From Synechococcus sp. A15-28 (GTDB lineage Bacteria > Cyanobacteriota > Cyanobacteriia > PCC-6307 > Cyanobiaceae), in the NCBI RefSeq assembly GCF_014280175.1, contig NZ_CP047931.1, positions 1,470,001-1,502,000 on the forward strand: a DNA stretch of 32,000 nt. The letters are read 5' to 3'. A model generated the notes under the pieces. The model saw only the letters and a list, made by a program, of their open reading frames with translations, was not told where the DNA came from and searched no databases. Positions 2,815 to 25,360 of this stretch are shown here, piece after piece (positions within the stretch are counted from its first letter, which is position 1; each line of letters starts with the position of its first letter). Made by a program: the position numbers and the translations under genes.

Positions 2815-3105
2815 GTGGAGCGCCTGTTCGTCTACGGCAGCCTCAAGGCCGGCGCCAGCGCCCATCACCTGCTGCAGAAGACCGTCGCTGAAGTTGAGGG
2901 TGTCTTGAATCAGGTGGAGCTGACCGTGCACGACGGTTATCCAATGCTGCCGGCCGGCTCGCAGCAGGTTCGTGGGGAGATCTACAAAGTTCCAGATGCC
3001 CTCTGGCCTGCGCTGGATGCATGGGAAGACGTGCCCAGGGTGTACAGCCGTCGCCGCCGGACGCTCCTCGACGGCAGAGACGTCTGGGTTTACGAGGCGT
3101 CCTGA
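2815..3105 (+). CDS. Gamma-glutamylcyclotransferase-like (AIG2/GGACT family) protein
   Basis: The 96-aa product starts LFVYGSLK and has the YPML...G.IY pattern of the GGCT-like fold. The start codon is GTG. Confidence 0.7.
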   Translation: MERLFVYGSLKAGASAHHLLQKTVAEVEGVLNQVELTVHDGYPMLPAGSQQVRGEIYKVPDALWPALDAWEDVPRVYSRRRRTLLDGRDVWVYEAS

Positions 3106-3800
3106 ACTGAGGCAGACGGGCAACTCCTGGCGGAGAAATCGCAGGAATACACAGCCGGCTTCTGCCAGCTGAGCGGAATCTCCAGCAGGTCACGGCTACC
3201 GGTGATGGCCTGAGCCAGGAACAACAGCGCAGCCAGAACCGAGGCACTGATGTGCAGGCGCCTGAAGCGAAGATCCCGCAGGATCTCCTGCCGTGCCGCC
3301 AGGGACGCCAACATCAAGCCCGTCACAGCAACCCCCGCCCAGTAGTGGGACTGCCAGAAGTCGCCTGATAGGGGGTTGTCCGACAGTCGCCAGACTTCGG
3401 GCTGGGCGCCGAGGCTGAGCACGCCGGTCCAGGTGATCAGGCTGAAGGCGAGGCGCAGGGATGCGGTCTTGCAGCGGAGCAAGGCCACCAGGCTGGCCAC
3501 GGTGCCTGCCAGCACCATCAGCAGTTGCGCTGCCCGCCAGACCCCACCAGCGAATTCGGATGGGGTGGTTTTGGTGGCGATCACCACGGTGAGGGCCACC
3601 AGCACGATCACCACGACAGCCGCCGCAAGCCAACGGCCGAGATCGCTGTGATCGCTTCCCACTGTGACCGGGTGCTTCACCGAGGCCACCCTTCGCTGCC
3701 GTGTCTGCCAGGCCAGTCGCACCACCACACCGAGCAGGGGGTACACCAGCACCACAGCCAGAACCGGATGCAGGATCCAGAGCCAGTCGACGGTGGTCAT
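3090..3800 (-). CDS. DUF4079-family integral membrane protein
   Basis: Motifs HPVLAVVLVYP, LGAQPEVWRLSDNP..FWQSHYW and AQAITGSRDL are present, and the protein is a paralog of the ORF at 22027-22674. The start is placed at the ATG at 3798-3800, which overlaps the upstream stop as ATGA. The ORF track extends the ORF to 3812. Confidence 0.75.
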   Translation of the reverse strand: MTTVDWLWILHPVLAVVLVYPLLGVVVRLAWQTRQRRVASVKHPVTVGSDHSDLGRWLAAAVVVIVLVALTVVIATKTTPSEFAGGVWRAAQLLMVLAGTVASLVALLRCKTASLRLAFSLITWTGVLSLGAQPEVWRLSDNPLSGDFWQSHYWAGVAVTGLMLASLAARQEILRDLRFRRLHISASVLAALLFLAQAITGSRDLLEIPLSWQKPAVYSCDFSARSCPSASVQDAS

Positions 3801-4273
3801 GGGGATGTCCACAGGTCTCTGCCTGAGACCTTTTCAAAAGACACAGGACGTTGCTTGATGCGCCAGGCCAGTCGCAAATTGATGGCAATGGCCGCGGCCA
3901 GGGCGAGATGAAAAAGATTGCCATTGGGAATCCCCATTCCCTGGAACGCGATCCAGGTGTTCACCCCCAGCAAAAAGCTGTTGATCAGGAACCAGATCAC
4001 AGCCACACCAAGCCGAACGAAGCGGCGATCCCGCAGTACCAATCGGACGGCCAGGCCACAGGTCAAAAGACCGGGTATCAAGCCGATGGAGCTGTAACCG
4101 TGAAGGATGCGCATCGACGCATCTGAATGCGCGTGGCTGAACAGGGCCGCCAGGAGGTTGAGTGAAATCAAGGCTCCCGGGTAGGGGCCAAGGGCATGAC
4201 GCAGCGGAGCCGGCCCATTCATCCAGAGGGCACCACGCAGAAGCGGGTGATGGGGCTGCGCCGGCTGAGACAT
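3797..4273 (-). CDS. Hypothetical multi-pass membrane protein
   Basis: The 158-aa ORF has high-GC coding character and about four hydrophobic helices. It is translationally coupled to the DUF4079 gene. I recognise no family. Confidence 0.6.
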   Translation of the reverse strand: MSQPAQPHHPLLRGALWMNGPAPLRHALGPYPGALISLNLLAALFSHAHSDASMRILHGYSSIGLIPGLLTCGLAVRLVLRDRRFVRLGVAVIWFLINSFLLGVNTWIAFQGMGIPNGNLFHLALAAAIAINLRLAWRIKQRPVSFEKVSGRDLWTSP

Positions 4274-4334: not shown

Positions 4335-4388
4335 ATGGCATTTCGAAACTTTTGTCCAGCCCTGCTGAACAAGACCTACTTCAACTAG
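4335..4388 (+). pseudogene. Orphaned native 5' end of the class-V aminotransferase gene (MAFRNFCPALLNKTYFN-stop), left behind at attL
   Basis: An ATG at 4335 opens 17 codons that end in TAG at the island junction. Residues CPALLNKTYFN match residues 10-20 of the intact gene at 12776. Confidence 0.75.
4353..4387. repeat. attL core: 35-bp direct repeat (one mismatch) of 12803-12837
   Basis: TGTCCAGCCCTGCTGAACAAGACCTACTTCAACTA here matches TGTCCAGCCCTGCTCAACAAGACCTACTTCAACTA at 12803-12837. The sequence turns AT-rich immediately to the right. Confidence 0.8.
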
Positions 4389-4458
4389 GACGCACTACCA
4401 TTCTGACAAGCCTAGATCAACTGCAGCACAACGGCTTTTAGAGAATAGCGTTGAGAGC

Positions 4459-4480
4459 TTTAGTCACACCTTTAGTCACA
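4459..4480 (+). promoter_or_regulatory. Two TTTAGTCACA motifs spaced 12 bp start-to-start (candidate integrase arm-type sites, left arm)
   Basis: TTTAGTCACA occurs at 4459-4468 and 4471-4480. The same pair with the same spacing and orientation occurs at 12733-12754. Confidence 0.55.
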
Positions 4481-10204: not shown

Positions 10205-10619
10205 TTCGCTTGAAGGTTGTTGTATCCATACAGTATGAATAGTAATATCAAGATGTCCCTTCAATGGACATAGTGATATTCAGATTCAAGCTCGGTAAAA
10301 AGATCAAGTAAACCTATTTATTTAACTTGCTGTTTGTTTTGTCCATCCACTAAACAAAGGGTTGATAAGTAGAAACACAAAGCGTTTCCAAGATCAACCA
10401 GGAGTTAGTACAAGTTAAATACAATGTGTCTTTTGGTTTACTTGTCTTTGGGCGGTACTTACGAAATGTCCGTCTCGCTGCGCTCGACCTGGACATTAAT
10501 AAAGGGGATGGTTTGTCATCCCCAAAGGTACAAAAGGAAGAGTACACCCACTCCCTTCCCCCTGTATAACTGACCACTCTAATTAAACCCAGGTGGGGAC
10601 TGATGTCTTAGGGTTACCT

Positions 10620-11537: not shown

Positions 11538-12731
11538 TTAGAGAAGATTCACAGCTCGCTCCAATTCACTCCAAGGAGTAGCGCCATATGCCATAGAAAT
11601 AGAATTAGGTGTGTGGCCAAGCAAAGTAACGACAACAGCCTCATTCATGTTATGTGCTCTCAATATGGTTGCAGCTCTGTCTCTAAAACCTTTGGGAGTT
11701 ATTCCAACTATTTTCCTACACGGCTTTGAAAGATTGACTCCCCAACGCTTATTAGCCCCTTGGTACTGACCCGGCCACAAAAGATCTTTCCTTTCGCGCA
11801 TCTCAATAGACAATGACTTCAATCTTGGATGAATTGGAATTGACCTCGCAGAGGAATCGCTCTTCAAGGGTCTTAACGCATTGGGTCGGATCAGTATCCG
11901 GTCATCAAGCAGGTCTTCTGCTTGCAAGCCAGCAATCTCAGCAAGTCGAGCACCAGTGAAATAAAGGAACTTGAAAATCTCTATCTGTTGACCCGACCCA
12001 TTCCACTGTGATGGATCGGTGATTGTGACATCAAGTTTTCTGACTTTAACGACCTTGATCCGTGTATTTAAGCCCTTGAATATATGGGTGCAATCGGGTC
12101 GTAGTTCACAAAGCACTGACCAGAGTCCACAAAGAAATGCGAGACGCGTTTTGACAGTTGAAGGACTTAGACGTGACAGCAACGAGGAGCGATAAGCAAC
12201 GGCGTGTTGGCGTGAAGCAGACGTTGGGTACGTGACTGCAGAGTGTGCCAAGAAATCGTCCAAGGCAGCCTTCCAAGCGATCTCCGTCCGTGCTGCAGGT
12301 GACTTCAGTGCCTTGGCCTGCTGGATCAGCTCTTCTTTGGAAAGGTGGTCTGGTGGCTGCTTCTCACCCTTCAAAATCGCTCTGTATCTGGCCGCTTGAT
12401 CGAGAGTTATCGACCCTTCCTCAACCTCAACATCACAGCCAGTAAGCAGCGTTTCAACAATTTCTGGATCAGACAGATCAAACCGTTGAGGAACCAAATC
12501 AATTAGCTCGTCGCCAGTCAGTGAAACCTCATTGCGAGCCTCAGCAATCAGTCGATCTGTCTTTGCTGCAAATGCAGCTGAGAGCCTCTGTGCGACGCGG
12601 TAGGTCGATCCAGCAGCCTCAACCCAAATCGTTTTGCCTATGACTGGCTGAACGTCCTTGGGAACGCCACGCTGCAACTGGTAACCATTGCGGGCCTGAC
12701 GCACGTATGTCGGATGCTTCCGAAAAGGCAC
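11538..12731 (-). CDS. int: Tyrosine recombinase / phage-type integrase
   Basis: The 397-aa product has box I (FTGARLAEI), LKSDSSARSIPIH, box II (GFRDRAATILR...LLGH) and a C-terminal Tyr (SMAYG). The gene abuts attR. Confidence 0.9.
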   Translation of the reverse strand: MPFRKHPTYVRQARNGYQLQRGVPKDVQPVIGKTIWVEAAGSTYRVAQRLSAAFAAKTDRLIAEARNEVSLTGDELIDLVPQRFDLSDPEIVETLLTGCDVEVEEGSITLDQAARYRAILKGEKQPPDHLSKEELIQQAKALKSPAARTEIAWKAALDDFLAHSAVTYPTSASRQHAVAYRSSLLSRLSPSTVKTRLAFLCGLWSVLCELRPDCTHIFKGLNTRIKVVKVRKLDVTITDPSQWNGSGQQIEIFKFLYFTGARLAEIAGLQAEDLLDDRILIRPNALRPLKSDSSARSIPIHPRLKSLSIEMRERKDLLWPGQYQGANKRWGVNLSKPCRKIVGITPKGFRDRAATILRAHNMNEAVVVTLLGHTPNSISMAYGATPWSELERAVNLL

Positions 12732-12732
12732 C

Positions 12733-12754
12733 TTTAGTCACAGTTTTAGTCACA
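12733..12754 (+). promoter_or_regulatory. Two TTTAGTCACA motifs spaced 12 bp start-to-start (candidate arm-type sites, right arm), plus a partial TAGTCA at 12758-12763
   Basis: The motif pair is identical to 4459-4480. It lies between the integrase start and the substitute aminotransferase start, so it may also overlap both promoters. Confidence 0.55.
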
Positions 12755-12775
12755 CCCTAGTCAGCCAAAAGCCAG

Positions 12776-13957
12776 ATGGACACAAACAAGCTGCGATCAC
12801 AATGTCCAGCCCTGCTCAACAAGACCTACTTCAACTACGGCGGCCAAGGCCCCCTGCCGACGCCATCGCTGGAGGCGATCCAGGCCAGCTGGCGGCGCAT
12901 TCAGGAGCTGGGCCCCTTCACCACGGATGTATGGCCATTCATCGGGGCCGAGGTGTCCAGCACCCGGCGGCGCCTCGCCCAGCTCTGCGGCGTGGCCCCC
13001 CATCGCCTGGCCCTCAGTGAAAACGTCACGAGCGGTTGTGTGCTGCCGCTGTGGGGACTGCCCTTCGACAGTGGCGATCGTCTGCTGATCAGCGACTGCG
13101 AACACCCTGGGGTTGTGGCCGCCTGCGTGGAGCTGGCCCGGCGTGAGGGGCTGACGATCGACACCCTGCCGGTGAAGCAGCTGCGCGGCGATCAACCCAG
13201 CACCGATGCGGGCGTGATGGACGCCCTGGAGCAGAGCCTCACCCCCCGCTCGCGGCTGGTGGTGCTGAGTCATCTGCTCTGGAACACGGGCCAGATCATG
13301 CCCATCCCCGCCGTCGCGGAACGGCTCGCCCAGCACCCCCAGGCGCCCTATCTGCTGGTGGATGCCGCCCAGAGTTTCGGGCAGATTCCTGTGCAGGACG
13401 CTGCTGCCGCCGCTGACATCTATGCCTTCACCGGCCACAAGTGGGCCTGTGGCCCGGAAGGCCTGGGTGGCGTGGCCCTGTCGGAACGGGTGCTGAACGA
13501 AGGCCAACCTACCGTGATCGGCTGGCGCAGCTTGCAGGATGAAAGCAAAGCGGACCTGAGCAGCTCCGATCCGTTCCACCACGACAGCCGCCGTTTTGAA
13601 GTCGCCACCAGCTGCGTGCCCCTGATGGCGGGCCTGCGCTGTTCGCTGGAGTTATTGGACCAGGAAGGATCGGCGGAAACCCGACTGATGCGGATCCGTC
13701 AGCTCAGTGGTGATCTCTGGAGCGGACTGCGGGAGATGCCTGGAGTCAAGCCTCTGATGGAGGTGCCACCGGCCAGTGGCCTGGTGAGCTTTCAGCTGAG
13801 CTGTGACGCAGCTCCTGCAGAGGTGGTGCAGCAACTTGGCCAACAGGGCCTGTGGATCCGCGACCTGGCGGACCCCAGCTGCCTGCGCGCCTGCACCCAT
13901 GTGACCACAACTGAGGCTGAAACGGAGGCACTGACGACGGCAATTGCACGATATTGA
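12776..13957 (+). CDS. Class-V aminotransferase / cysteine-desulfurase-like PLP enzyme
   Basis: The 393-aa product contains YFNYGGQGP, LLVDAAQSFG and FTGHKWACGPEG (PLP lysine). The first 9 codons and the upstream region are island-derived. Confidence 0.85.
   Translation: MDTNKLRSQCPALLNKTYFNYGGQGPLPTPSLEAIQASWRRIQELGPFTTDVWPFIGAEVSSTRRRLAQLCGVAPHRLALSENVTSGCVLPLWGLPFDSGDRLLISDCEHPGVVAACVELARREGLTIDTLPVKQLRGDQPSTDAGVMDALEQSLTPRSRLVVLSHLLWNTGQIMPIPAVAERLAQHPQAPYLLVDAAQSFGQIPVQDAAAAADIYAFTGHKWACGPEGLGGVALSERVLNEGQPTVIGWRSLQDESKADLSSSDPFHHDSRRFEVATSCVPLMAGLRCSLELLDQEGSAETRLMRIRQLSGDLWSGLREMPGVKPLMEVPPASGLVSFQLSCDAAPAEVVQQLGQQGLWIRDLADPSCLRACTHVTTTEAETEALTTAIARY
12803..12837. repeat. attR core: direct repeat of 4353-4387
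   Basis: See the attL entry. The core lies inside codons 10-21 of the aminotransferase gene. Confidence 0.8.
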
Positions 13958-16159: not shown

Positions 16160-16768
16160 ATGGCTCGATACCGCGGCCCTCGTCTGAGGATCACGCGGCG
16201 CTTGGGAGACCTCCCTGGTCTCACCCGGAAGGCCGCAAAGCGGTCCTATCCCCCCGGTCAGCACGGCCAAGCCCGTCGCAAGCGCTCTGAATACGCAATC
16301 CGTCTCGAAGAAAAGCAGAAGCTTCGCTTCAACTACGGCATCTCCGAGCGTCAGCTCGTGCGTTACGTGAAGAAAGCGCGCGCCCAGGAGGGTTCCACCG
16401 GAACCAACCTGCTCAAGCTGCTCGAGAACCGTCTCGACAATGTCTGTTTCCGCCTGGGCTTCGGTCCCACCGTGCCCGGCGCCCGTCAGCTGGTGAACCA
16501 CGGCCACGTCACCGTCAACGGCCGCGTCACCGATATCGCCAGCTACCAGTGCAAGGCCGGCGATGTGATCGCCATCCGCGAGCGCAAGTGCAGCAAGCAG
16601 CTGGCTGAAGCCAACCTCGAGTTCCCGGGTCTGGCCAACGTGCCGTCCCACCTGGAACTGGACAAGGCCAAGCTCAACGCCAAGGTCACCGGTCGCTGTG
16701 AACGCGAATGGGTTGCCCTGGAGATCAACGAACTGCTGGTGGTGGAGTACTACTCCAGAAAGGTTTAA
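16160..16768 (+). CDS. rpsD: 30S ribosomal protein S4
   Basis: [22 protein letters not shown]...[10 protein letters not shown] matches S4. The true ATG is 14 codons inside the track ORF. The last codons and the stop are supplied by island-side sequence. Confidence 0.95.
16749..16764. repeat. 16-bp direct repeat ACTACTCCAGAAAGGT at the rpsD 3' end (also at 20099-20114)
   Basis: The match is an exact 16-mer. The sequence turns AT-rich right after it here. At 20099 it is followed by a stop codon and a strong terminator. Confidence 0.7.
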
Positions 16769-16827
16769 GTTCGGTTCATAACGAGAGCTCTCAGCTTTTT
16801 ACGAGTACCCATTCAAACTTTATTCAA

Positions 16828-16872
16828 TCTCCTGATACCGTTCAATAAAAACGGTATCAGGAGACTTTTTTT
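16828..16872 (+). terminator. Strong rho-independent terminator now serving rpsD
   Basis: A 15-bp perfect stem, TCTCCTGATACCGTT / AACGGTATCAGGAGA, is followed by a T7 run. Confidence 0.8.
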
Positions 16873-16904
16873 GATTTTTTCCTTTTAGTTAAACACCATT
16901 TTGT

Positions 16905-18326
16905 CTAATTAATTAGCGTCTGATACATTACCCTTGAAAGCAATCTAATGCCATCGTCATCTTTCAAAGTTTGAAAATCAGGCATATTATTGTAAAAAAT
17001 TGACAAATCTTCTAGCAATTCAGGATGAAATTGGAAAGTAAACGATTTTCGTATTTTTTGAGTTTGAAAATCTAAATAATTTATGCAAGTAGCTGCTACT
17101 TCTGTGCAGACTTCTCCATTTATACGAGTTGAGCAAACAATTTCAACAGATGTTGGTAGATTCAAAATCCAAGATAGATCTGATATCAATATCTTCTTTC
17201 TTATAGGATAAACTGCCTTGTGCAATTCTCCGAATGCCCAATTAGCAAAAAGAATTGCTTCCTGGTTAACTACATCGCTATGAAACATTTCTATATGGAG
17301 GTTTTTTTCATATGTAATAAATTTTTCGACAACACCCAGTTCATGCTCGTGAGATAGCTCATGACACATAAGTAAATTTGAAAATTCATCACTAGGATGC
17401 AGTCCAGAATGCGAATATTTCTTTAGGTCTACTTTGCCGACCTCAGGCTTATGGTTAAGCGCAACTGCAAAACAACTATCATTCCAGCCTTTTGCAACTA
17501 TCTTTTCATTTCTATAAACACATAAACTTTCTCCAACCAAGATAATTTCCGTACACTTCTTCCTGAGGTTGTCTAGATAGTAATTACTATCTTCAGAATT
17601 AATCAAAAATGATAAACAGTCATCAGTCGCTCTTTTGATTATCTCTATATGAGCCTGAGCAGCAAGTTGATGACCTAGGCAAATAAATATAGCAGGAGAT
17701 GAGTTTGAATCCCTTGAAAGTATAATTTCCTCAGCAACTTCTTGCAAATCTTCTAGCTTAATACTTGTATCATCAAAGCTTTTGCAATCTTTTAAAGTTG
17801 GATAACCCCCCTCTACGAAACACATAATACAGTTTTTAATCAATTCTATTAAAAGTTCATTATTTAAAGGACCAGCCTCCCAGAGTGGTATCAATATTGA
17901 ATCGCAGTCGGCTATATATTGAGACAAGTACGCAATATTTATAGATGCTTTAACCTCATTCCCATATGGATTTACGCCGACATGCTTAGCGGGCTCTATT
18001 ATACAAATAGAATTTCTATAAATTCCAGGATATTTTAGAATTTCTTTTAAATCATTATTCGATCTTACAACTCTTTCCAAAGGACCTTCTTCTCCCCATT
18101 GACTATTGGCAAGTAAATCCAATTTCTTATCATAAAAAGGTTCAAGCAAACTATTTGAATCTCTATCATTTATGAAATCGGCCAAAAGAAATTCAATACT
18201 TGTTCGATTTGATTTTCCAGGCCTGAAAAAGCCAGCCATAGCTTTAAATACTAACATTTTCCATATTAGCTTCTTTGTCAACCGTATTTTAGTATCTAGT
18301 ACGACAGAGTGGCATAGCATTAGCAC
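16905..18326 (-). CDS. Atypical class-I glutamine amidotransferase-like protein (473 aa)
   Basis: A nucleophile-elbow motif AIFICLGHQ lies near residue 216 and FQFHPE near residue 434. The gene is very AT-rich. The spacing and the N-terminal extension are much larger than in canonical GATase1 domains. The start is uncertain (GTG 18326 or ATG 18320). Confidence 0.7.
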   Translation of the reverse strand: MLMLCHSVVLDTKIRLTKKLIWKMLVFKAMAGFFRPGKSNRTSIEFLLADFINDRDSNSLLEPFYDKKLDLLANSQWGEEGPLERVVRSNNDLKEILKYPGIYRNSICIIEPAKHVGVNPYGNEVKASINIAYLSQYIADCDSILIPLWEAGPLNNELLIELIKNCIMCFVEGGYPTLKDCKSFDDTSIKLEDLQEVAEEIILSRDSNSSPAIFICLGHQLAAQAHIEIIKRATDDCLSFLINSEDSNYYLDNLRKKCTEIILVGESLCVYRNEKIVAKGWNDSCFAVALNHKPEVGKVDLKKYSHSGLHPSDEFSNLLMCHELSHEHELGVVEKFITYEKNLHIEMFHSDVVNQEAILFANWAFGELHKAVYPIRKKILISDLSWILNLPTSVEIVCSTRINGEVCTEVAATCINYLDFQTQKIRKSFTFQFHPELLEDLSIFYNNMPDFQTLKDDDGIRLLSRVMYQTLIN

Positions 18327-18364
18327 TTTAATGATAATTAAAACGTAATCGATAGTGAAATAGA

Positions 18365-18544
18365 ATGTCTATTTATTGCTTATCTAGTGTGTCAAGCGTC
18401 CACTCACAAGGGCGAGCAATCAAGATCTCGTTGACCACTGTATTGGGAGCTGCTGAGGCATTTATTGCCAAGTACGCAGAGTGGATCAATAGTCACGGCG
18501 TTGATCTCACCTCGGCTCAACCAAGCGAATGGGCGGCTAGCTAA
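18365..18544 (+). CDS. Possible 59-aa ORF
   Basis: Hand translation gives MSIYCLSSVSSVHSQGRAIKISL...EWAAS. It is below the track cutoff and has no recognisable motifs. Confidence 0.25.
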   Translation: MSIYCLSSVSSVHSQGRAIKISLTTVLGAAEAFIAKYAEWINSHGVDLTSAQPSEWAAS

Positions 18545-18614
18545 AAATCAGTGTTGGCAGCGGTTCAGATCCTTAGAGCGTTCTGTGTCAGAAGGTCAGC
18601 GGCATAACCAACGC

Positions 18615-18675
18615 TTAGCCAGCTCCAGGAGCCCAACCAGCCTCAGTACGCCAAGTTGGTGCTAGAGCTTGCACC
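18615..18675 (+). repeat. Copy 1 of an approximately 60-bp repeat containing two hairpins, the second terminator-like
   Basis: TTAGCCAGCTCCAGGAGCCCAACCAGCCTCAGTACGCCAAGTTGGTGCTAGAGCTTGCACC is followed by GGTTTTTA. The stems are CCAAC/GTTGG and GGTGC/GCACC. Confidence 0.6.
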
Positions 18676-18773
18676 GGTTTTTATGCGTGCTGAAGTTTTC
18701 CAGATGGTTCGTTCCAATACAGTTCACACCCCTAAAGGAGCTTTATAACGGACTTACAACTGAAGGAGGTGCC

Positions 18774-18968
18774 ATGAGTCGATCAAGGTCGTACAACCGC
18801 TTTCATCGTTATCTGGCTCGGCAGAAACGCTGTGGACTGCGCTCCGTCCTGCCGCAGTACCAGATGGAGTATGAGTACTACGGAACGCCCATTGATCACA
18901 GCCAAGACATGCTCAACAGGCTGAAAAGACGTGAAATCGAGCTTGAGCTGCTGGAAGCTCAGGCCTGA
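18774..18968 (+). CDS. Hypothetical small basic protein (64 aa)
   Basis: The ATG is preceded by GAAGGAGGTGCC, a strong Shine-Dalgarno sequence. The product begins MSRSRSYNRFHRYLARQKR.... The track ORF starts further upstream at 18669. Confidence 0.5.
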   Translation: MSRSRSYNRFHRYLARQKRCGLRSVLPQYQMEYEYYGTPIDHSQDMLNRLKRREIELELLEAQA

Positions 18969-18976
18969 CTAACTAA

Positions 18977-19037
18977 TTAGCCAGCTTCAGGAGCCCAACC
19001 AGTTTCAGCACGCCACGTTGGTGCCCAGAGCTTGCAA
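18977..19037 (+). repeat. Copy 2 of the approximately 60-bp repeat (about 7 mismatches by eye)
   Basis: The copy reads TTAGCCAGCTTCAGGAGCCCAACCAGTTTCAGCACGCCACGTTGGTGCCCAGAGCTTGCAAC. It lies 362 bp downstream of copy 1. Confidence 0.6.
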
Positions 19038-19142
19038 CTCTTCTGAGAAGGGCGCCTGGGCCAGCTGGCCTCAGAGCCTTCGGTGGAACGCCCAACGTGA
19101 TCGACATTAATTGAACGGGCAGAACGTTGAGCTCAGCTCGCT

Positions 19143-19526
19143 TTGACTGACTTCTCAGAGCTAGAGGCGCATCCCGGCAATCGTGACTTCGAGAGAGTCA
19201 ATGCACTGGTCTGCATGGGCTGGGAAGGCATCGAGTCAGCAGCAGTCCAAGAAGAGCCAACAGCAGAACTCTTCATCGCAGAAGACAAGAGCTTCGTTGA
19301 ATGCACATGGACCGCAGGCTTCAGCCTGAGTTCAGGCTCCTACGAGTTTTACGGCGAGGGCGAGACCTACACCGGTGAAGAGGATGCTGTCGAGAAGTAC
19401 GACACCAGTTCACTGGAGGGCGGCCTTCAGGTTGCAGTGAGAGTTCTTGAGGAATTGCTTGGCGTTGACCAAGTCGAATCAGCAAGAAAGATCGTTGAGC
19501 AACTTCAGGAGACCAATCCAGAGTGA
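19143..19526 (+). CDS. Hypothetical acidic protein
   Basis: The 127-aa ORF starts with TTG and is rich in Glu/Asp. I recognise no family, and the start is uncertain. Confidence 0.45.
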   Translation: MTDFSELEAHPGNRDFERVNALVCMGWEGIESAAVQEEPTAELFIAEDKSFVECTWTAGFSLSSGSYEFYGEGETYTGEEDAVEKYDTSSLEGGLQVAVRVLEELLGVDQVESARKIVEQLQETNPE

Positions 19527-19600
19527 TTCCGGCTTAGTTCCTGAACAGCGCCGCCTCCGTATTCACTGCGCATTCCTAATCAACTCGTCAAACTAGTCCA

Positions 19601-19632
19601 ACCAAAAAGAAACCCCCGCTTGAGGCAGGGGC
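19601..19632 (-). terminator. Rho-independent terminator of the DUF4278 gene
   Basis: The minus strand reads GCCCCTGCCTCAAGCGGGGGTTTCTTTTT: a GC-rich hairpin followed by a T tract, 23 nt after the stop. Confidence 0.6.
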
Positions 19633-19654
19633 TTGGGATCTGATTCAGCCTTGA

Positions 19655-19822
19655 TCACTTGGTGTAAGAAGCACCTCGGTAGGTCAGGCGTGGATGAGCG
19701 TTGCGAGCGACTTCTTCGCGGCAGGTGTTGTAGTGCTCGCGGCGGTAGGTCAGCTCGACACAAGCTTTGAGCGAAGGTGCTTGGGCTTCGTAGGAGTGAC
19801 CTCTGTAGAGAAGAGCAGTCAT
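19655..19822 (-). CDS. DUF4278-like small protein
   Basis: From the ATG at 19822 the product is MTALLYRGHSYEA...LTYRREHY...LTYRGASYTK. The repeated YRG.SY motifs are typical of cyanobacterial DUF4278. Confidence 0.65.
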   Translation of the reverse strand: MTALLYRGHSYEAQAPSLKACVELTYRREHYNTCREEVARNAHPRLTYRGASYTK

Positions 19823-19901
19823 GGTTTGTCCCTCAGAAAATTCCAAGTCCCCGTTCCGTGGCTTGGAGTGTCTGCGCCCCTGCGTACAGAGGTGAACGTT
19901 T

Positions 19902-19917
19902 TGTAGCAGATGCTACA
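19902..19917. promoter_or_regulatory. Candidate NtcA binding site (TGTA-N8-TACA palindrome)
   Basis: TGTAGCAGATGCTACA has perfect 7-bp arms. Its centre is about 88 nt upstream of the DUF4278 ATG. Confidence 0.5.
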
Positions 19918-20098
19918 GACAGATCATACGCCCGGGTCAAGCCCATGAACGTGCGTAACAACCTCGCTTAATCGCCCGCGCAGGTTTGTCGCTATTTGTC
20001 TTTGTTGAGCCAAGTGCCTGATGGGACAAGGCATATACTCAAACCCTACTCAAACTCTAAAAACAGGGTCAAAAAGCAATGCAGCACTGAAAACGTGG

Positions 20099-20118
20099 AC
20101 TACTCCAGAAAGGTCTGA
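20099..20118 (+). pseudogene. Remnant A of the rpsD 3' end (..YSRKV-stop)
   Basis: ACTACTCCAGAAAGGTCTGA encodes the same C-terminal residues as 16749-16768, with a TGA stop. Confidence 0.7.
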
Positions 20119-20148
20119 TCCGTTTCAAGACCTCTGTGTCCCCCGATG

Positions 20149-20181
20149 CGCAACCCTGGGTTCAGGGTTGCGTTTTTCTTT
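20149..20181 (+). terminator. Orphaned rho-independent terminator following rpsD remnant A
   Basis: The stem is CGCAACCCTG-GGTT-CAGGGTTGCG, followed by TTTTTCTTT. Confidence 0.75.
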
Positions 20182-20312
20182 GGCTGATCCCCAGATACTG
20201 CAGGCGCTCACAAGCCGGGACGGTGCAGAAAACTTTTCCAAACTCCAGCCCCCATTAACCGAAAAAGGTGGCAGGACTTTTTCTTAAGGCAAGAGAATCT
20301 GATTCCAAGCAG

Positions 20313-20504
20313 TCACTCGGCGATTTTCAAAGACTGCTCTAAATGATTAACGTGTCTTTCCAGGGTGATTTCACGACGGTGCATCTCAAGCTCACGCTCA
20401 TGGGTTTTCTCATCGATCCTGGTGCGGCCGCCATTCATCATCTCCGAGTAAGTCAGAGCTCTTGGCTTTTTTCGAGGAAGGTCATGTTCGTGCATCCAAG
20501 TCAC
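20313..20504 (-). CDS. Hypothetical small charged protein
   Basis: The 63-aa ORF has a GTG start or an ATG at 20495. The ACGTAATGACC motif lies 15 nt upstream. Confidence 0.35.
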   Translation of the reverse strand: MTWMHEHDLPRKKPRALTYSEMMNGGRTRIDEKTHERELEMHRREITLERHVNHLEQSLKIAE

Positions 20505-20663
20505 TGATTAATCGACTAACGTAATGACCAACCTAGTGGCACTCAAGGAAATGTCACCCTAATGCACCAATTCAGACCAGAATCTTAAGAATTCGGCTCA
20601 GACAATTCAAACAAGCGCCCAACACATTAATTCAAGACCTATCAACCAAGTGAGCTCATCCCC

Positions 20664-21785
20664 TTGAACAGTGACGCCACCACAAACCTTCGTTCAAGCG
20701 CACTTAGGCGCATTGATTTGAACATCAAGCCTTACATAAAAAGTGATGACATAATTGCCGCTTGGCAAATCATTAGCACGATAATCCCGTTAATCATATG
20801 CTGCATTGCAATTGGCAATATCACCAGTCAGCTAACATTAGTTTCAGTCATTCTAACCCCAGCACTGTTTCTATTAATAATCCTATTTTTGAGTAGAAGC
20901 TTTTCGTTGATGCACGACTGCGGTCACCACAGCTTATTCAGGTCAAAAACTGCTAATCGGATTGCCGCCTTTGCCTTGAGCATTATCCATGCAATGCCTC
21001 ATCACCCCTGGTCTAGGGGCCATGCATTTCACCACAAACACAATGGTAATTGGAACCGCTACAGAGGCCCGTCCGCTTTAACAACGCTTCGCGAGTACAA
21101 GGCAATGAACAAAGGCTCTCAATTCATTTACCAACTCTTGCGGCACCCCATATTACTTCTTCCGGGAGGTTTTTACTATCTCGTTATTAAACCAAGAGCT
21201 GCGCTACTCCTTGGACTCATTGAGTTTGTCGTCAAAGCAGTAGCCGATGGATTTCGCAAACTTTCAAACGGACATAACTTCAGCATACGTTCGTTTTTAA
21301 ACAATCACAAATCAAGCTTCTTTTATACCAAAGAGGAAGTTTACGACACTATTGCCAATACCACGTGCGTTGCACTCGCCTGGTACTTTATTGGGAGCAC
21401 GATTGGTCACTGGCATTTCTGGATTTTATACATCTCAGCCATGAGCGTCAGTGCAGCGATCATGATTGCTGTATTTTTTATTCAACACAACTTTCCAGGA
21501 TCCTATACTAGCAGCGACGAAAATTGGGACTACTTTAAAGGCGCCATCGAAGGCTCATCTTTTCTCATTATGCCTCGTTTCCTAAACTGGTTTACAGCAG
21601 ATATTGCTTACCATCATGTTCACCATTTATCCGAAAGAATCCCTAATTACCGCCTACGCATGTGCCATGAACACAACGAGAAAAAATTCGGCAGCGTTAG
21701 GCGACTGCATCTGCATGAATTCCGGAACTGTTTTTCATTGATCCTTTGGGACGATGAAACCCTTCAACTCACCTCAATCGAATGA
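20664..21785 (+). CDS. Membrane fatty-acid desaturase family protein
   Basis: Three histidine boxes are present: HDCGH, HAFHH (HAFHHKHN) and HHVHH. Several transmembrane segments are present. The start (TTG) is uncertain. Confidence 0.85.
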   Translation: MNSDATTNLRSSALRRIDLNIKPYIKSDDIIAAWQIISTIIPLIICCIAIGNITSQLTLVSVILTPALFLLIILFLSRSFSLMHDCGHHSLFRSKTANRIAAFALSIIHAMPHHPWSRGHAFHHKHNGNWNRYRGPSALTTLREYKAMNKGSQFIYQLLRHPILLLPGGFYYLVIKPRAALLLGLIEFVVKAVADGFRKLSNGHNFSIRSFLNNHKSSFFYTKEEVYDTIANTTCVALAWYFIGSTIGHWHFWILYISAMSVSAAIMIAVFFIQHNFPGSYTSSDENWDYFKGAIEGSSFLIMPRFLNWFTADIAYHHVHHLSERIPNYRLRMCHEHNEKKFGSVRRLHLHEFRNCFSLILWDDETLQLTSIE

Positions 21786-21930
21786 AAATGGCTTTGATAT
21801 CAAAGCAATATGCGAAAAAAAGCATTCATGTTGACTGCATTAACGGAAGAATTTATGCTCAATTAAAATATTGAGTTCTAAACACTCCGGACGCCGAGAG
21901 CGCTAGTGGGTGGCCCTGAGGACTGACGCA

Positions 21931-22026
21931 TGTTGGTGGTGAGGCATACCCACCCGAAGTTCCGGTGCGCTTCGACACCCTTGTGCCCCCGATGCGCGAC
22001 GCTGGTGAAAGGACTGCAATTTTTTT
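21931..22026 (+). repeat. Remnant B: decayed copy of the rpsD tail plus a terminator-like region
   Basis: TGTTGGTGGTGAGGCATACCCACCCGAAGTT resembles rpsD TGCTGGTGGTGGAGTACTACTCCAGAAAGGTT. TGTGCCCCCGATGCGCGAC matches TGTGTCCCCCGATGCGCAAC at 20135. Both are followed by a T-run and TTGGCTGA. Confidence 0.45.
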
Positions 22027-22674
22027 TTGGCTGAATCTGAGGCTCTGCAGAACCTCAGCTCCCAGCAATGGTGGGGGCTGATTCATCCAGTACTGATGAT
22101 CCTGTTCGTCTACCCGGTGACAGGGGCAACCATCCGCCTGGGAATCCTGGCGCGGGAGAGGAGGTTGAAGATCAACCCAATTGCGGAAACCGTGCCCATC
22201 GAACATGCCCAGCACGGCGCCTGGGTGACCGGTGGAGTGCTGGTGGCGCTGCTGATCAGCCTCAGCCACAGCCTGGTGGGTGGAGCCAACGGCATGCTTC
22301 TGCTGTTGGGGGTTGTCACGCTGATCGGATACCTCTCCCTACTGCGCAGCCGACTGATCTGGCAGCGGCTGCTGGCGGGCTCCATCTGCTGGGGAGCGTT
22401 ATTGACCCTTGGGCTGCAACCGACCGTGGAACGGCTCAGTGATCAGCCCTGGACGGTACTGTTCTGGCAATCCCATTTCTGGATGGGATGGATTCTCACC
22501 GGACTGCTGCTCAGCTCAACAGCAATTCAACCGCTGATCGCTCAATGCCCGCGGCTACGGCGCTGGCACGTGGCCACCAACGTGGTGGTGGCGTTGCTGC
22601 TTGCGATGCAGGCCATCTCGGGCAGCCGCAACCTGGTGATCAGCGGCCTGCAGACCATCCATGGGGCAAGCTGA
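22027..22674 (+). CDS. DUF4079-family integral membrane protein (paralog of 3090-3800)
   Basis: HPVLMILFVYP, LGLQPTVERLSDQP..FWQSHFW and MQAISGSRNL are present. The start is TTG. Confidence 0.75.
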   Translation: MAESEALQNLSSQQWWGLIHPVLMILFVYPVTGATIRLGILARERRLKINPIAETVPIEHAQHGAWVTGGVLVALLISLSHSLVGGANGMLLLLGVVTLIGYLSLLRSRLIWQRLLAGSICWGALLTLGLQPTVERLSDQPWTVLFWQSHFWMGWILTGLLLSSTAIQPLIAQCPRLRRWHVATNVVVALLLAMQAISGSRNLVISGLQTIHGAS

Positions 22675-22692
22675 ACCTATGTAGGAGCACCC

Positions 22693-22917
22693 ATGTCCAA
22701 AGCAAGAGATCTGATCAATGCCCATCTGTATCCGGTGCTGGCCACGTTTGCCGTGATCTATGGAGCGATTCAGATCGCACCCATTGCACAGCAGGCGCGT
22801 TACTTCAACCGTTGCGTCGAAGCAGCACCCCAAGGAGTCAACACAGCAAGGGCTGTGATGTTCTGCCACGGCCGGCCAGCGATGCTCAAAAAGACAAATA
22901 ACGAATTAAAGCTCTGA
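22693..22917 (+). CDS. Hypothetical small protein with one hydrophobic helix
   Basis: The 74-aa ORF has an AGGAG Shine-Dalgarno sequence 5 nt before the ATG. Confidence 0.5.
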   Translation: MSKARDLINAHLYPVLATFAVIYGAIQIAPIAQQARYFNRCVEAAPQGVNTARAVMFCHGRPAMLKKTNNELKL

Positions 22918-23033
22918 ACAAAATCAAGCTCATCAATTCAACAAAAACAGGAGGTTGAGCATTGTTCAAAGAACACTGTTAACGTCCTCGTGCTCGGCCG
23001 TGACATCCTCAAACTGATTGGCGAAGTCAAGGT

Positions 23034-23240
23034 ATGCCAACAATCTCTCGCCAGAACGCACAAAGTCAGCAGAATTGTCAATTCAGTCATGAGTCACCCG
23101 ACATGCCCAACTGGATCAAGCGCTCTTTGTCAGCTGGTGTCGCAGCGGGCACAGCACTCTTCACATTTGCTGTGAACGTCGCCTGGAATGTCTGCGCTGT
23201 AGTTGGGGCATCCATCCTCATCGGCGCAGTATTCGTCTGA
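23034..23240 (+). CDS. Small hydrophobic protein (alternative start at 23103, MPNWIKRSL...)
   Basis: The C-terminal half, AGVAAGTALFTFAVNVAWNVCAVVGASILIGAVFV, is membrane-like. Its stop overlaps the next ATG. Confidence 0.4.
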   Translation: MPTISRQNAQSQQNCQFSHESPDMPNWIKRSLSAGVAAGTALFTFAVNVAWNVCAVVGASILIGAVFV

Positions 23241-23374
23241 TGGGGGATTTACTGAAAGGACTGAAAACAGCATTGATGACATCGACTGTTGCTATTTTCC
23301 TGTTTGTTGCACCAGTTTTCGCCACTATCATCAAAGGGTTGATAACCGCGACAAGCATTGTTTTTGGCGTTTAG
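23240..23374 (+). CDS. 44-aa hydrophobic peptide, translationally coupled to the preceding ORF
   Basis: Hand translation gives MGDLLKGLKTALMTSTVAIFLFVAPVFATIIKGLITATSIVFGV. The TGATG overlap is at 23238-23242. It is below the track cutoff. Confidence 0.35.
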   Translation: MGDLLKGLKTALMTSTVAIFLFVAPVFATIIKGLITATSIVFGV

Positions 23375-23499
23375 GCTCCATCGACAAAAAGATCTGCATG
23401 TCCTGGGGTGCCTCAACTTACGCACTCCCAATACTTAAAAAGAAACTCATATTTCTTCATCAAGCAAATAATTCAGTAGGGTGCTTTCTTTGAACTGAC

Positions 23500-23691
23500 T
23501 TGTTGCCTGAGAAGACCACAATTCATGGGCAGTGGGTAGACATCTCCTCAAATAGTCGCATTATTTGTCTAATTAATCTACCCTTCGCTAACCACCCGAA
23601 CAAAGGACCAGGCTTTGTTTATGATTTCTTTTCAACTAAAGAGGAAGAAGACCTGCTGAGTCACGAGACGTTTTTCAAAGGGATCAAATGA
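23500..23691 (+). CDS. Hypothetical small protein
   Basis: The 63-aa ORF starts with TTG and overlaps the next ORF as ATGA. Confidence 0.3.
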   Translation: MLPEKTTIHGQWVDISSNSRIICLINLPFANHPNKGPGFVYDFFSTKEEEDLLSHETFFKGIK

Positions 23692-23870
23692 ATAAAAAAT
23701 TCATCATCTTTTGCGCCTTAGCCATCCCTTTGATCGTCCTTGTGTTGATCAAGGTGACCCAGAAATCCGAACCTTGTCCAACGATGGAACAAATCAAGGC
23801 CGCCAAACAATCAAATCCTGAACTATTTGATCGCTATCTTCATGGCTTTGAATACCAGCAATGCCGGTGA
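23688..23870 (+). CDS. Small signal-anchored or secreted protein
   Basis: MNKKFIIFCALAIPLIVLVLIKV forms an N-terminal hydrophobic segment. The product is 60 aa. Confidence 0.45.
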   Translation: MNKKFIIFCALAIPLIVLVLIKVTQKSEPCPTMEQIKAAKQSNPELFDRYLHGFEYQQCR

Positions 23871-24226
23871 GGGATCAAGAAAGATTTTAGTTTTCACATT
23901 CTTTTAAACGGCTTTATGTTGAGATGACCACGCATTGTGCCTGACGCCTCGCTTGACTTAAGTCACTGGCATCCATCCATCCGATGACAACGTCGCCAAG
24001 AGCACGGTTGAGCAGCTTCTTGGCACACCGCTGGAAGGAAATGGGGGAACCCTCGCTGATGCGACAGCACAAATACTCATTACTGTTGAGAAGCATTCGT
24101 GCAGAAAAACGGTTGGTCGCCTTGGAATTACTTGATCTCATGCTTGAAGATACCTGCCAACAACTCGACAGCATCTGAATCGACGTATGACATTGACCAT
24201 CAGTTTCCCCTGATCAAGTCACACTG

Positions 24227-24511
24227 ATGACCAGCCTGACTCCGCTCCTTCTTGCCACAGCGGTCAACCTTGTCATGGCGCAAGCCGCTCAGGAGCCCAA
24301 GCAGTGGATCGGTCGCTGTGAGCCGGTCAATGCCGTAATGGTCATGAATCAAGCCCTGACAGAGGGGAAAACCGATGCCGAGGCCTTCGCTGCAGTGGTG
24401 GAAGCACGGTCCTTTGATGGCTCCAAAGCCTGCATCGACTTCATCCGTGAAGCCTCCATGAACATGAGGGAGGGATATCCACGAACATTTCAGTCGCTTT
24501 GGATGGACTGA
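24227..24511 (+). CDS. Hypothetical secreted protein
   Basis: The 94-aa product has a signal-peptide-like N-terminus, MTSLTPLLLATAVNLVMAQA. Confidence 0.6.
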   Translation: MTSLTPLLLATAVNLVMAQAAQEPKQWIGRCEPVNAVMVMNQALTEGKTDAEAFAAVVEARSFDGSKACIDFIREASMNMREGYPRTFQSLWMD

Positions 24512-24589
24512 CGGCGACACGACAGAAGGCGACCTGACAGTGACACCAGATCTGGTGTGTCAACCAGCAGAACTCCCTGTCTGCCCAAC

Positions 24590-24613
24590 AAAAAAGCCGC
24601 CACAACGGGCGGC
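24590..24613 (-). terminator. Terminator-like hairpin on the minus strand with no obvious upstream ORF
   Basis: The minus strand reads GCCGCCCGTTGTGGCGGCTTTTTT. Confidence 0.5.
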
Positions 24614-24843
24614 CGGGTGATGGGGATATCCACAACCTAGCTCAGAAAGCCAGTGGTGCCAGCCTTTTCCAGAGCCAAGGTGACAAAGAACACATCCCGG
24701 CTGTCCACAACCTGTGGAACGTCAAGGCGACGCCATCAAGTCTTTACAGAAATCCCACTAGATCTAGTGCATTTTTAAGATCGCCCGGTCATCAGGCCCT
24801 ATCTTTGGTGCGTTGGCTGGGTGATGGGGATCGCCTGTCCTGT

Positions 24844-24872
24844 AGCCCCCCTGATGTTGAGGGGGGCTTTTT
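24844..24872 (+). terminator. Strong terminator on the plus strand more than 330 bp after the nearest plus-strand stop
   Basis: The stem is AGCCCCCC-TGATGTTGA-GGGGGGCT, followed by TTTT. Confidence 0.65.
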
Positions 24873-24967
24873 ACTGACAACAGCACCATCACAATCCCCT
24901 CAGCCCACCACCAGTCGCCAGGGACAGTCCTGGAAACTGGCTTGATCTGACTGGACAGAACAGGAGA

Positions 24968-25345
24968 TCAATTCATGACGCTGATGCTCGTATCCGCTGG
25001 CTTTCTCGGCCTTCTCTGGCTGACGCAAACCCTGGTGAGACGAAACCTGGACAAACGCCAGGAGCCGCGATGACATGGCCATGACCATGCCGGGCCGTCT
25101 CGGTGACGCGCCTGCCTGATCAGCTCATACTCTTGGTCCGACAGCTCCTGCATGAGAAACACGGAGTTGAGGCGACGGTGATAACGGCAATAGCCGAGAG
25201 AGGCATGAACACCAATGAGCAGTCCCCCAAACAGCAGCAACAGCGACTGATCGGCGGAGGCCCCCACCACCGAGGCAAAGCCCCAGGTGAGCAAGAGCGC
25301 CAGGAGAGCACTGCGGATCAACCGTCGCAAGGGAAGGAAGACCAT
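24968..25345 (-). CDS. Hypothetical two-helix membrane protein, last gene of the maf-mscS-Erv operon
   Basis: MVFLPLRRLIRSALLALLLTWGFASVVG... lies 13 bp downstream of the preceding stop codon (25361-25363). The C-terminal part looks low-complexity and Arg-rich, so its extent is uncertain. Confidence 0.45.
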   Translation of the reverse strand: MVFLPLRRLIRSALLALLLTWGFASVVGASADQSLLLLFGGLLIGVHASLGYCRYHRRLNSVFLMQELSDQEYELIRQARHRDGPAWSWPCHRGSWRLSRFRLTRVCVSQRRPRKPADTSISVMN

Positions 25346-25360
25346 GGACACCCTTGCTGA

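Follow-up and report, generated by a model that had tools for sequence, protein, structure and literature searches.

The question raised by this locus is how a block of foreign DNA that carries no recombinase gene came to lie exactly at the 3' end of rpsD, the gene for ribosomal protein S4, in Synechococcus sp. A15-28. The window analyzed here is the whole stretch of 32,000 nucleotides (nt) from contig NZ_CP047931.1 (positions 1,470,001 to 1,502,000), and all coordinates below are positions within it unless another contig is named. A preliminary description, made from the letters of the window alone, had proposed that a block at 16765-20098, here called island A, lies between a functional and a displaced rpsD tail. 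Island A was found to be a precise insertion with reciprocal junctions and to be polymorphic in the population; its arms are shared with integrase-bearing elements, and such elements occupy the same site in the same species. It was probably inserted by site-specific recombination through an integrase family typified by that of the same-species contig L092, and is probably non-autonomous.

The gene and the two copies of the repeat are as follows.

16160-16768, + strand: rpsD (ribosomal protein S4), with Pfam Ribosomal_S4 and S4 domains
16749-16764, + strand: core of the left attachment site (attL), the 16-nt identity segment that holds the crossover, from the repeat search and the four-junction comparison
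20099-20114, + strand: core of the right attachment site (attR), the second copy of the 16-mer, from the same two sources

The rpsD protein of the window showed 97% amino-acid identity to that of Synechococcus PH41509 (L001). The 16-mer ACTACTCCAGAAAGGT closes rpsD and recurs at precisely the two places that had been described. With up to 2 mismatches allowed, it was found at exactly these two sites of the window, and 100 shuffles gave no chance match, which answers the concern, raised in the preliminary description, that such a repeat might recur by chance. The gene ends in AGA AAG GTT TAA, while the second core copy runs on as GTC TGA; both encode Val-stop, as had been read from the tetranucleotides TTAA and CTGA. 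Within the last 20 nt of rpsD, the 16-nt core belongs to the host, and the third base of the last codon together with TAA belongs to island A. The strong new terminator reported at 16828-16872 was recovered as a perfect 15-bp stem at 16828-16864 followed by a T-run (to 16872), and this strong hairpin of the left arm of island A had a folding energy of -32.5 kcal/mol (z = -5.5). The second terminator, an 11-pair stem at 20148-20173 with a T-run (to 20181), is as well formed as had been stated for 20149-20181, but it is orphaned in this strain only, being the normal rpsD terminator of the commoner allele without island A.

The block at 16765-20098 is compositionally foreign. Its guanine-plus-cytosine (GC) content was 31-36% at 16800-18400 and 51-55% at 18400-20000, compared with flanks of about 64%. 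Comparison of its open reading frames (ORFs) with Pfam, PHROGs and NCBIfam, and tblastn with the proteins of integrase-bearing relatives, revealed no recombinase in the block, in agreement with the preliminary description. A tblastn comparison of every ORF of those relatives with the window also gave no integrase remnant or pseudogene in island A. As had been described, no transfer RNA (tRNA) or transfer-messenger RNA (tmRNA) gene was present in the 32-kb window. Rfam detected no RNA gene at the attachment (att) site that might be the true target; its sole match was a glutamine-II riboswitch within the cargo.

We analyzed the same locus in ten same-species metagenome contigs that encode exactly the rpsD protein of the window and whose flanks are 96-99.9% identical to it. 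Eight of these contigs (L090, L091, L093, L094 and L096-L099) join 16764 to 20099 across a single 16-mer, and the flanks of these eight are 98-100% identical to the window. In L091 the gene order is rpsD, an ORF of 60 amino acids (aa), desaturase and DUF4079. The preliminary description had predicted an empty site in which rpsD is followed directly by 20115 onward, and this is the arrangement of the eight contigs. Island A is a presence/absence polymorphism with a precise edge at the core, and because flanks with and without it are 98-100% identical, its gain or loss was recent.

The reverse arrangement was found in L103 and L104, two contigs of different assemblies (ERZ17293469 and ERZ27286646) that were located as carriers of the closest homologue (97% identity) of the AT-rich cargo gene. 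Both run from window 19805-20114 (92.6% identical) through one 16-mer into window 16749-18460 (98% identical). The four junctions are as follows.

attB junction, GGAGT - 16-mer - CTGATCC: eight same-species contigs; right flank CTGATCCG
attP-like junction, ACGTGG - 16-mer - TTAAGTT: L103 and L104; left flank AAAACGTGG, right flank TTAAGTTCGG
attL junction, GGAGT - 16-mer - TTAAGTT: window
attR junction, ACGTGG - 16-mer - CTGATCC: window

These junctions are exact reciprocal recombinants and are mutually consistent. With the attB sequence, they bear out the proposal that the island lies exactly at the rpsD 3' end and restores the last codon, the stop and a terminator. The junction in L103 and L104 (a 2.3-kb contig) could come from a circle or from a tandem array of two related elements, and in either case it is a recombination product at the core. 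A mis-join at L104 is unlikely, because the 16-nt overlap is far below the k=119 given in the contig name. The two contigs also bear on the idea that the AT-rich block arose as a chimera in assembly, through foreign low-GC DNA being wrongly attached to a high-GC contig. The sharp GC fall from 64% to 31% would fit such an error; however, L103 and L104 independently show the left arm of the window connected to its AT-rich gene at 98% identity, L101 and L102 carry an 86%-identical homologue of this gene next to DNA of higher GC content (44-57% per kb), and both junctions of island A fall exactly at the att core. A chimera is hardly credible.

Integrase-bearing elements were found at the same site in the same species. 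In L092 and L095, whose rpsD protein is 100% identical to that of the window and whose flanks are 96% identical at the nucleotide level, the rpsD tail is followed by an arm of about 100 nt and then by a 461-aa ORF with tyrosine-recombinase box motifs. The 461-aa protein matched the PHROG_1 integrase (3e-18) and, below the curated cut-off, Pfam Phage_integrase (4.6e-5). At E up to 0.001, its family comprised 37 clusters. Organism names were attached solely to the members from Prochlorococcus MIT 1201 and MIT 1318, and the rest came mostly from metagenome assemblies; as judged from these matches, the family appears to be small and confined to picocyanobacteria. When metagenomes were scanned with a family alignment, 80 loci were obtained.

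A family integrase adjoins an rpsD tail at 12 loci, and a 13th (L022) has a decayed fragment. At L110, L111, L118, L128, L129 and L130, rpsD lies about 100 nt upstream of the integrase in the same orientation, and an inverted rpsD tail adjoins the integrase in L105, L108 and L109. In L116, a tail without rpsD stands beside the integrase and is preceded by right-arm-like sequence, an attP-like or tandem junction. The locus of Prochlorococcus MIT 1201 (L105) is a complete 9.7-kb island with a 19-nt rpsD-tail repeat at its edges and the integrase at the distal end. In Synechococcus CUG2158 (L022), a 2.8-kb rpsD island has the decayed N-terminal integrase fragment as its first ORF, directly after rpsD. 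Repeats of the rpsD tail around unrelated cargo were present in 6 of 80 species-representative genomes, the six being from Prochlorococcus and Synechococcus, and in these the left edge of the repeat always lay 17-28 nt before the stop. Most of the rpsD islands in other genomes also lacked an integrase.

The integrase family was also seen at other sites. In Prochlorococcus MIT 1318, an element with a family integrase lies in a comM-like Mg-chelatase gene (L106, 9797-20600), with the displaced 3' fragments about 10 kb off. At eight metagenome loci (L113, L115, L117, L119-L121, L125 and L126), the conserved sequence AATAATCCACTCCACGCTTGAGGTC lies upstream of the family integrase. Viral contigs scanned with the L092 integrase gave no relatives. 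When viral contigs were considered as attP carriers, the 9 matches to the rpsD-tail pattern all came from one unrelated phage gene with the motif in frame, and these candidates were rejected.

The arms of island A were then compared with those of the integrase-bearing elements.

16765-16872, + strand: left arm of island A, with T-TAA, a small hairpin, the arm motif TCAAACTTTATTCAATCTC (16813-16831) and the strong terminator 16828-16872
19981-20098, + strand: right arm of island A; the arm motif TCAAACCCTACTCAAACTC lies at 20039-20057, and a conserved AGCACTGAA box adjoins the core

In a first alignment (A5), 16765-16872 was collinear with the stretch between rpsD tail and integrase in seven integrase-linked arms, six of them with a full integrase gene and the seventh, L022, with the decayed fragment. 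The order in this alignment is stop codon, small hairpin, a pair of TCAAAC-type half-sites 4 bases apart, and a strong hairpin with T-run. After the T-run, the seven arms continue with the integrase start (ATG, GTG or TTG; ATGCC in 5 of 7), while island A continues with unrelated AT-rich DNA. In a second alignment (A6), the right arm of island A (about 19985-20098) had conserved counterparts in L103, L101 and the attR of L022, which shared its second TCAAAC pair and its AGCACTGAA box adjoining the core.

The pattern TCAAACY-N4-TCAAWCTC occurred exactly twice in the 32-kb window, at 16813-16831 and 20039-20057, against 0.02 expected, and the two sites lie +49 and -42 nt from their respective cores. 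In a looser form the motif was rare, with 42 matches in 3.8 Mb of fetched DNA, both strands counted. Of the rpsD tails, 26 had this form no more than 150 nt away, with offsets of +52 to +76 for 22, -58 for four and -126 for one. The motif also precedes family integrases with a non-rpsD target, so it travels with the integrase and not with rpsD. By their position and conservation, the TCAAAC pairs are candidate arm-type binding sites or an operator of the integrase. In three low-GC Prochlorococcus single-cell genomes (L008, L013 and L020), the rpsD-island repeats run more than 200 nt past the tail at about 80% identity and take in both a TCAAAC pair and a terminator, so that the seemingly native sequence downstream of rpsD there may itself be an older element's left arm.

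These data bear on whether general or illegitimate recombination, either homologous replacement of islands or slipped deletion between the 16-nt repeats, might account for the gain or loss of the block. Picocyanobacterial islands are often swapped by homologous recombination in conserved flanks, and the long diverged repeats of the neighboring island B (about 165 nt, 69% identical; see below) fit a homology-driven event better. However, RecA-mediated recombination is not efficient over as little as 16 nt, and in each of seven independent lineages the repeat begins 17-28 nt ahead of the stop. The arms, moreover, are conserved and integrase-linked, and a reciprocal junction is present. We consider this explanation improbable for island A.

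A further candidate was the integrase of island 1, elsewhere in the window, which the preliminary description had offered as an example of a helper in trans. Island 1 is bounded by a 35-nt direct att repeat (4353-4387 and 12803-12837) at the 5' end of a class-V aminotransferase gene, of which the repeat copies about codons 10-21. That island 1 also targets the terminus of a protein-coding gene had been correctly recognized. In favor of its integrase (11538-12731), it is the only recombinase in the window, and its target is likewise the end of a protein-coding gene. However, its best BLASTP E-value against the rpsD-site family was 0.46, which is no significant similarity, and its 35-nt att core is unrelated to the rpsD core. 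The repeats TTTAGTCACA occur twice at each end of island 1, just inside (4353-4480 and 12733-12837), and are probably the arm sites of the island 1 integrase. They are confined to these two ends and none was found within island A, which has the TCAAAC motif of the other family. The proposed helper role was not supported, and mobilization of island A by the island 1 integrase is very improbable. A segment of about 85 nt of island 1 (10438-10520) recurs inverted and 94% identical at the far end of L092 (4096-4179), and at 87% identity in L090 (174-250), which points to shared sequence modules between the island 1 type and the rpsD island type.

Island A might also be a dead fossil, that is, a formerly autonomous element that lost its integrase and became fixed cargo, the strains without it never having received it. 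Island A has neither an integrase nor a remnant of one, the window has no family integrase, and the integrase-less state of most rpsD islands in other genomes agrees with such a history. However, the cores still agree at 16 of 16 positions, and each arm is preserved together with its motif. The flank identity of 98-100% indicates a recent gain or loss, the right-end/left-end junction is present in two assemblies (L103 and L104), and integrase-bearing relatives circulate in the same species. A fossil is possible, though rather unlikely. The preliminary description had left open whether the recombinase-less block was decayed or moved in trans; the lack of an integrase and the retention of both arms are in keeping with that statement. 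The chances that island A can still excise or move are about even.

Several points weigh against insertion by the L092-type family. No integrase of the L092 family is present in the 32-kb window. The junction in L103 and L104 could be that of a tandem array, and identity to the window in its right part reaches only 92.6%. The TCAAAC motif may be an operator or promoter element, its binding being suggested by position and conservation. The left arm of island A shares only about 55-60% identity with the arm of the same-species element L092, and recognition of the arms of island A by the L092 integrase is assumed.

Taken together, site-specific insertion by the L092-type family would proceed as follows. 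The attP would consist of right arm, 16-nt core and left arm, and the attB of the last bases of rpsD. A tyrosine integrase of the small picocyanobacterial family would recombine the two, and we infer that an integrase of the L092 type catalyzed the insertion of island A. Crossover within the 16-nt identity would join the rpsD body to the third codon base, the stop and the strong terminator of the element; this terminator would insulate the cargo, and the native stop and terminator would be displaced 3.35 kb downstream. Island A has retained both arms, each with the paired TCAAAC motif found beside the integrase gene in autonomous relatives, and lacks the integrase gene from the exact point at which that of the autonomous relatives begins. 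Because the gene is missing, further movement of island A would need an integrase in trans, and the helper could be a relative in tandem at rpsD or one transiently present.

The cargo of island A was also examined.

16905-18236 (or 18326), - strand: cargo gene of about 443-473 aa in the AT-rich segment, with a weak Pfam GATase match (1.5e-4)
18365-19526, + strand: variable middle, with small ORFs at 18365-18544, 18774-18968 and 19143-19526 that had no family matches
19655-19822, - strand: small DUF4278 protein (Pfam DUF4278, 1.1e-8)
19842-19901, - strand: glutamine-II riboswitch immediately preceding the DUF4278 gene (Rfam RF01704; bit score 58.5, gathering threshold 33)

The 443-473-aa protein had 320 homologues, some of them annotated as GMP synthase-like amidotransferase, and it is a member of a conserved cyanobacterial hypothetical family that weakly resembles class-I glutamine amidotransferases. 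A search of solved structures with the 443-aa form gave nothing useful; the best E-value was 0.08, to squalene synthase. An 81%-identical homologue is present in L100, in a low-GC island that starts with a tmRNA gene and a XerC/D-like integrase, which shows that the cargo gene moves between island types. L103 and L104 diverge from the window beyond about 18460; because the middle (about 18460-19800) differs between them and the window, island A is a mosaic. A 48-nt direct repeat (90% identical; 18615-18662 and 18977-19024) brackets the small ORF 18774-18968. The amidotransferase-like protein and the small protein under a glutamine riboswitch suggest that the cargo may be related to nitrogen metabolism.

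Downstream of island A, the preliminary description had followed the displaced tail as far as 20181. The boundaries 16765-20098 held, but low-GC DNA and a third rpsD tail lie beyond that point.

20115-20225, + strand: displaced native rpsD end, comprising C-TGA, the spacer (terminator at 20148-20181) and a duplicate of DUF4079 codons 1-15
about 20226-21886: island B, with a 63-aa ORF (20313-20504, - strand) and a fatty-acid desaturase gene (20664-21785, + strand); GC content 44-48%
21887-21962, + strand: third, degenerate rpsD tail, which corresponds to the last 75-85 nt of rpsD but is decayed and interrupted by in-frame stops
21887-22026, + strand: third tail plus second spacer copy, leading into the real DUF4079 gene (22027-22674)

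The segment 20115-20225 directly follows rpsD in strains without island A and is 81% identical to the uninterrupted rpsD-DUF4079 spacer of Synechococcus PH41509. Island B was present in every same-species contig long enough to show the region; it is an older insertion than island A and contains no TCAAAC motif. The third-tail region showed 69% identity over 167 nt to the contiguous rpsD end, spacer and DUF4079 start of the contigs without island A. This flanking repeat fits either a homology-driven insertion of a fragment with donor flanks or a different recombinase. Compared with the spacer of PH41509, copy 2 is 81% and copy 3 is 72% identical, values that do not single out one of them as the native flank. 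The preliminary description had stated that its claim would fail if relatives without the AT-rich block also carried two rpsD tails. Strains without island A have the exact 16-mer only once, but they do keep the degenerate second tail.

Long rpsD remnants were also seen in another contig. L101 carries, at 2868-3910, the inverted 86%-identical cargo homologue, an A-type right arm and tail, an ORF for a membrane protein of 183 aa and a frameshifted rpsD remnant 230 nt long; its content divides the remnants in arrays into a short (16-28 nt) and a long (85-230 nt) class. A third low-GC stretch of the window (22680-25360, 43-54%) contains small ORFs and lies between DUF4079 and an Erv1/EF-hand gene. 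In PH41509, the gap from DUF4079 to the mechanosensitive-channel gene is only about 1.1 kb.

The locus offers a 16-nt core, arm motifs, a dedicated integrase family and natural empty, occupied and attP-like junctions. It is a compact and directly testable system for the transfer of non-autonomous cargo in organisms without plasmids and conjugation, and an rpsD tail followed by a TCAAAC pair provides a signature by which further islands can be recognized. A wider proposal, which we advance tentatively and hold to be less likely than not, is that the rpsD 3' end of marine picocyanobacteria may serve as a cassette-exchange platform run by an undescribed integrase family specialized in the ends of protein-coding genes (rpsD, the comM-like gene and at least 1 other conserved site). 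Integrase-less cassettes such as island A would keep full attP arms and would be routinely shuttled as circles by helpers competing for the site. If true, such a platform would extend tycheposon-style island building beyond tRNA genes.

Tycheposons are the closest known elements in these hosts. The attachment sites named for them in Prochlorococcus and Synechococcus in two studies are all tRNA or tmRNA genes (7 sites and tRNA-Phe), and these studies tie island building to such genes (Hackl et al., bioRxiv 10.1101/2020.12.28.424599; Grebert et al. 2022, PMC8995045). They have a divergent tyrosine recombinase at one end, proximal or distal, and adaptive cargo; many are integrase-less remnants, and repeated integration at one site builds tandem arrays with partial target copies in between (10.1101/2020.12.28.424599; PMC8995045). 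The rpsD islands resemble them in their hosts, divergent tyrosine recombinase, cargo and tandem arrays with target remnants, as seen in the three rpsD tails of the window and the two of L101. However, the target of the rpsD islands is not a tRNA or tmRNA gene but the 3' end of a protein-coding gene, here one for an essential ribosomal protein. The 461-aa integrase resembled the tmRNA-adjacent integrase of L100, the sole one compared, only weakly and locally (37 aa, E 0.003). A primase/helicase module as in complete tycheposons was found neither in island A nor in the sequenced part of L092, which encodes, adjacent to the integrase, an 82-aa protein and a 238-aa protein only weakly resembling a RepB regulator; in the rpsD island of L045, one ORF is DnaB-helicase-like by eye only.

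A second parallel is provided by the cis-mobilizable elements (CIMEs) at the fda 3' end of Streptococcus thermophilus. These are related to ICESt1 and ICESt3, have the att sites of the autonomous element but no recombinase, and are mobilized when an autonomous element integrates alongside (accretion). Island A is CIME-like in that it has the att sites and arms of a related autonomous element, no recombination genes and a position at the 3' end of a housekeeping gene. The right arm-core-left arm junctions of L116 and L103 are compatible with accretion but do not prove it, and island A may be mobilized in a similar way. In contrast, the CIME hosts belong to a different phylum and have a different integrase and a conjugative helper, and no conjugation genes were seen around island A.

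The 3' end of rpsD itself is a known target in Firmicutes, where the islands SagCI, PICI1 and PICI2 of S. agalactiae use it (PMC4129442, PMC7487436). These islands are phage-inducible, are about 15 kb long and encode a 398-aa integrase of their own along with a primase and a lysogeny module (PMC4129442, PMC7487436). What they have in common with island A is the rpsD 3'-end target. The literature searched contained no paper that joins rpsD, a genomic island and an integrase in Synechococcus. What is new for picocyanobacteria is the rpsD att site together with its integrase family, whereas the kind of element is itself already known.

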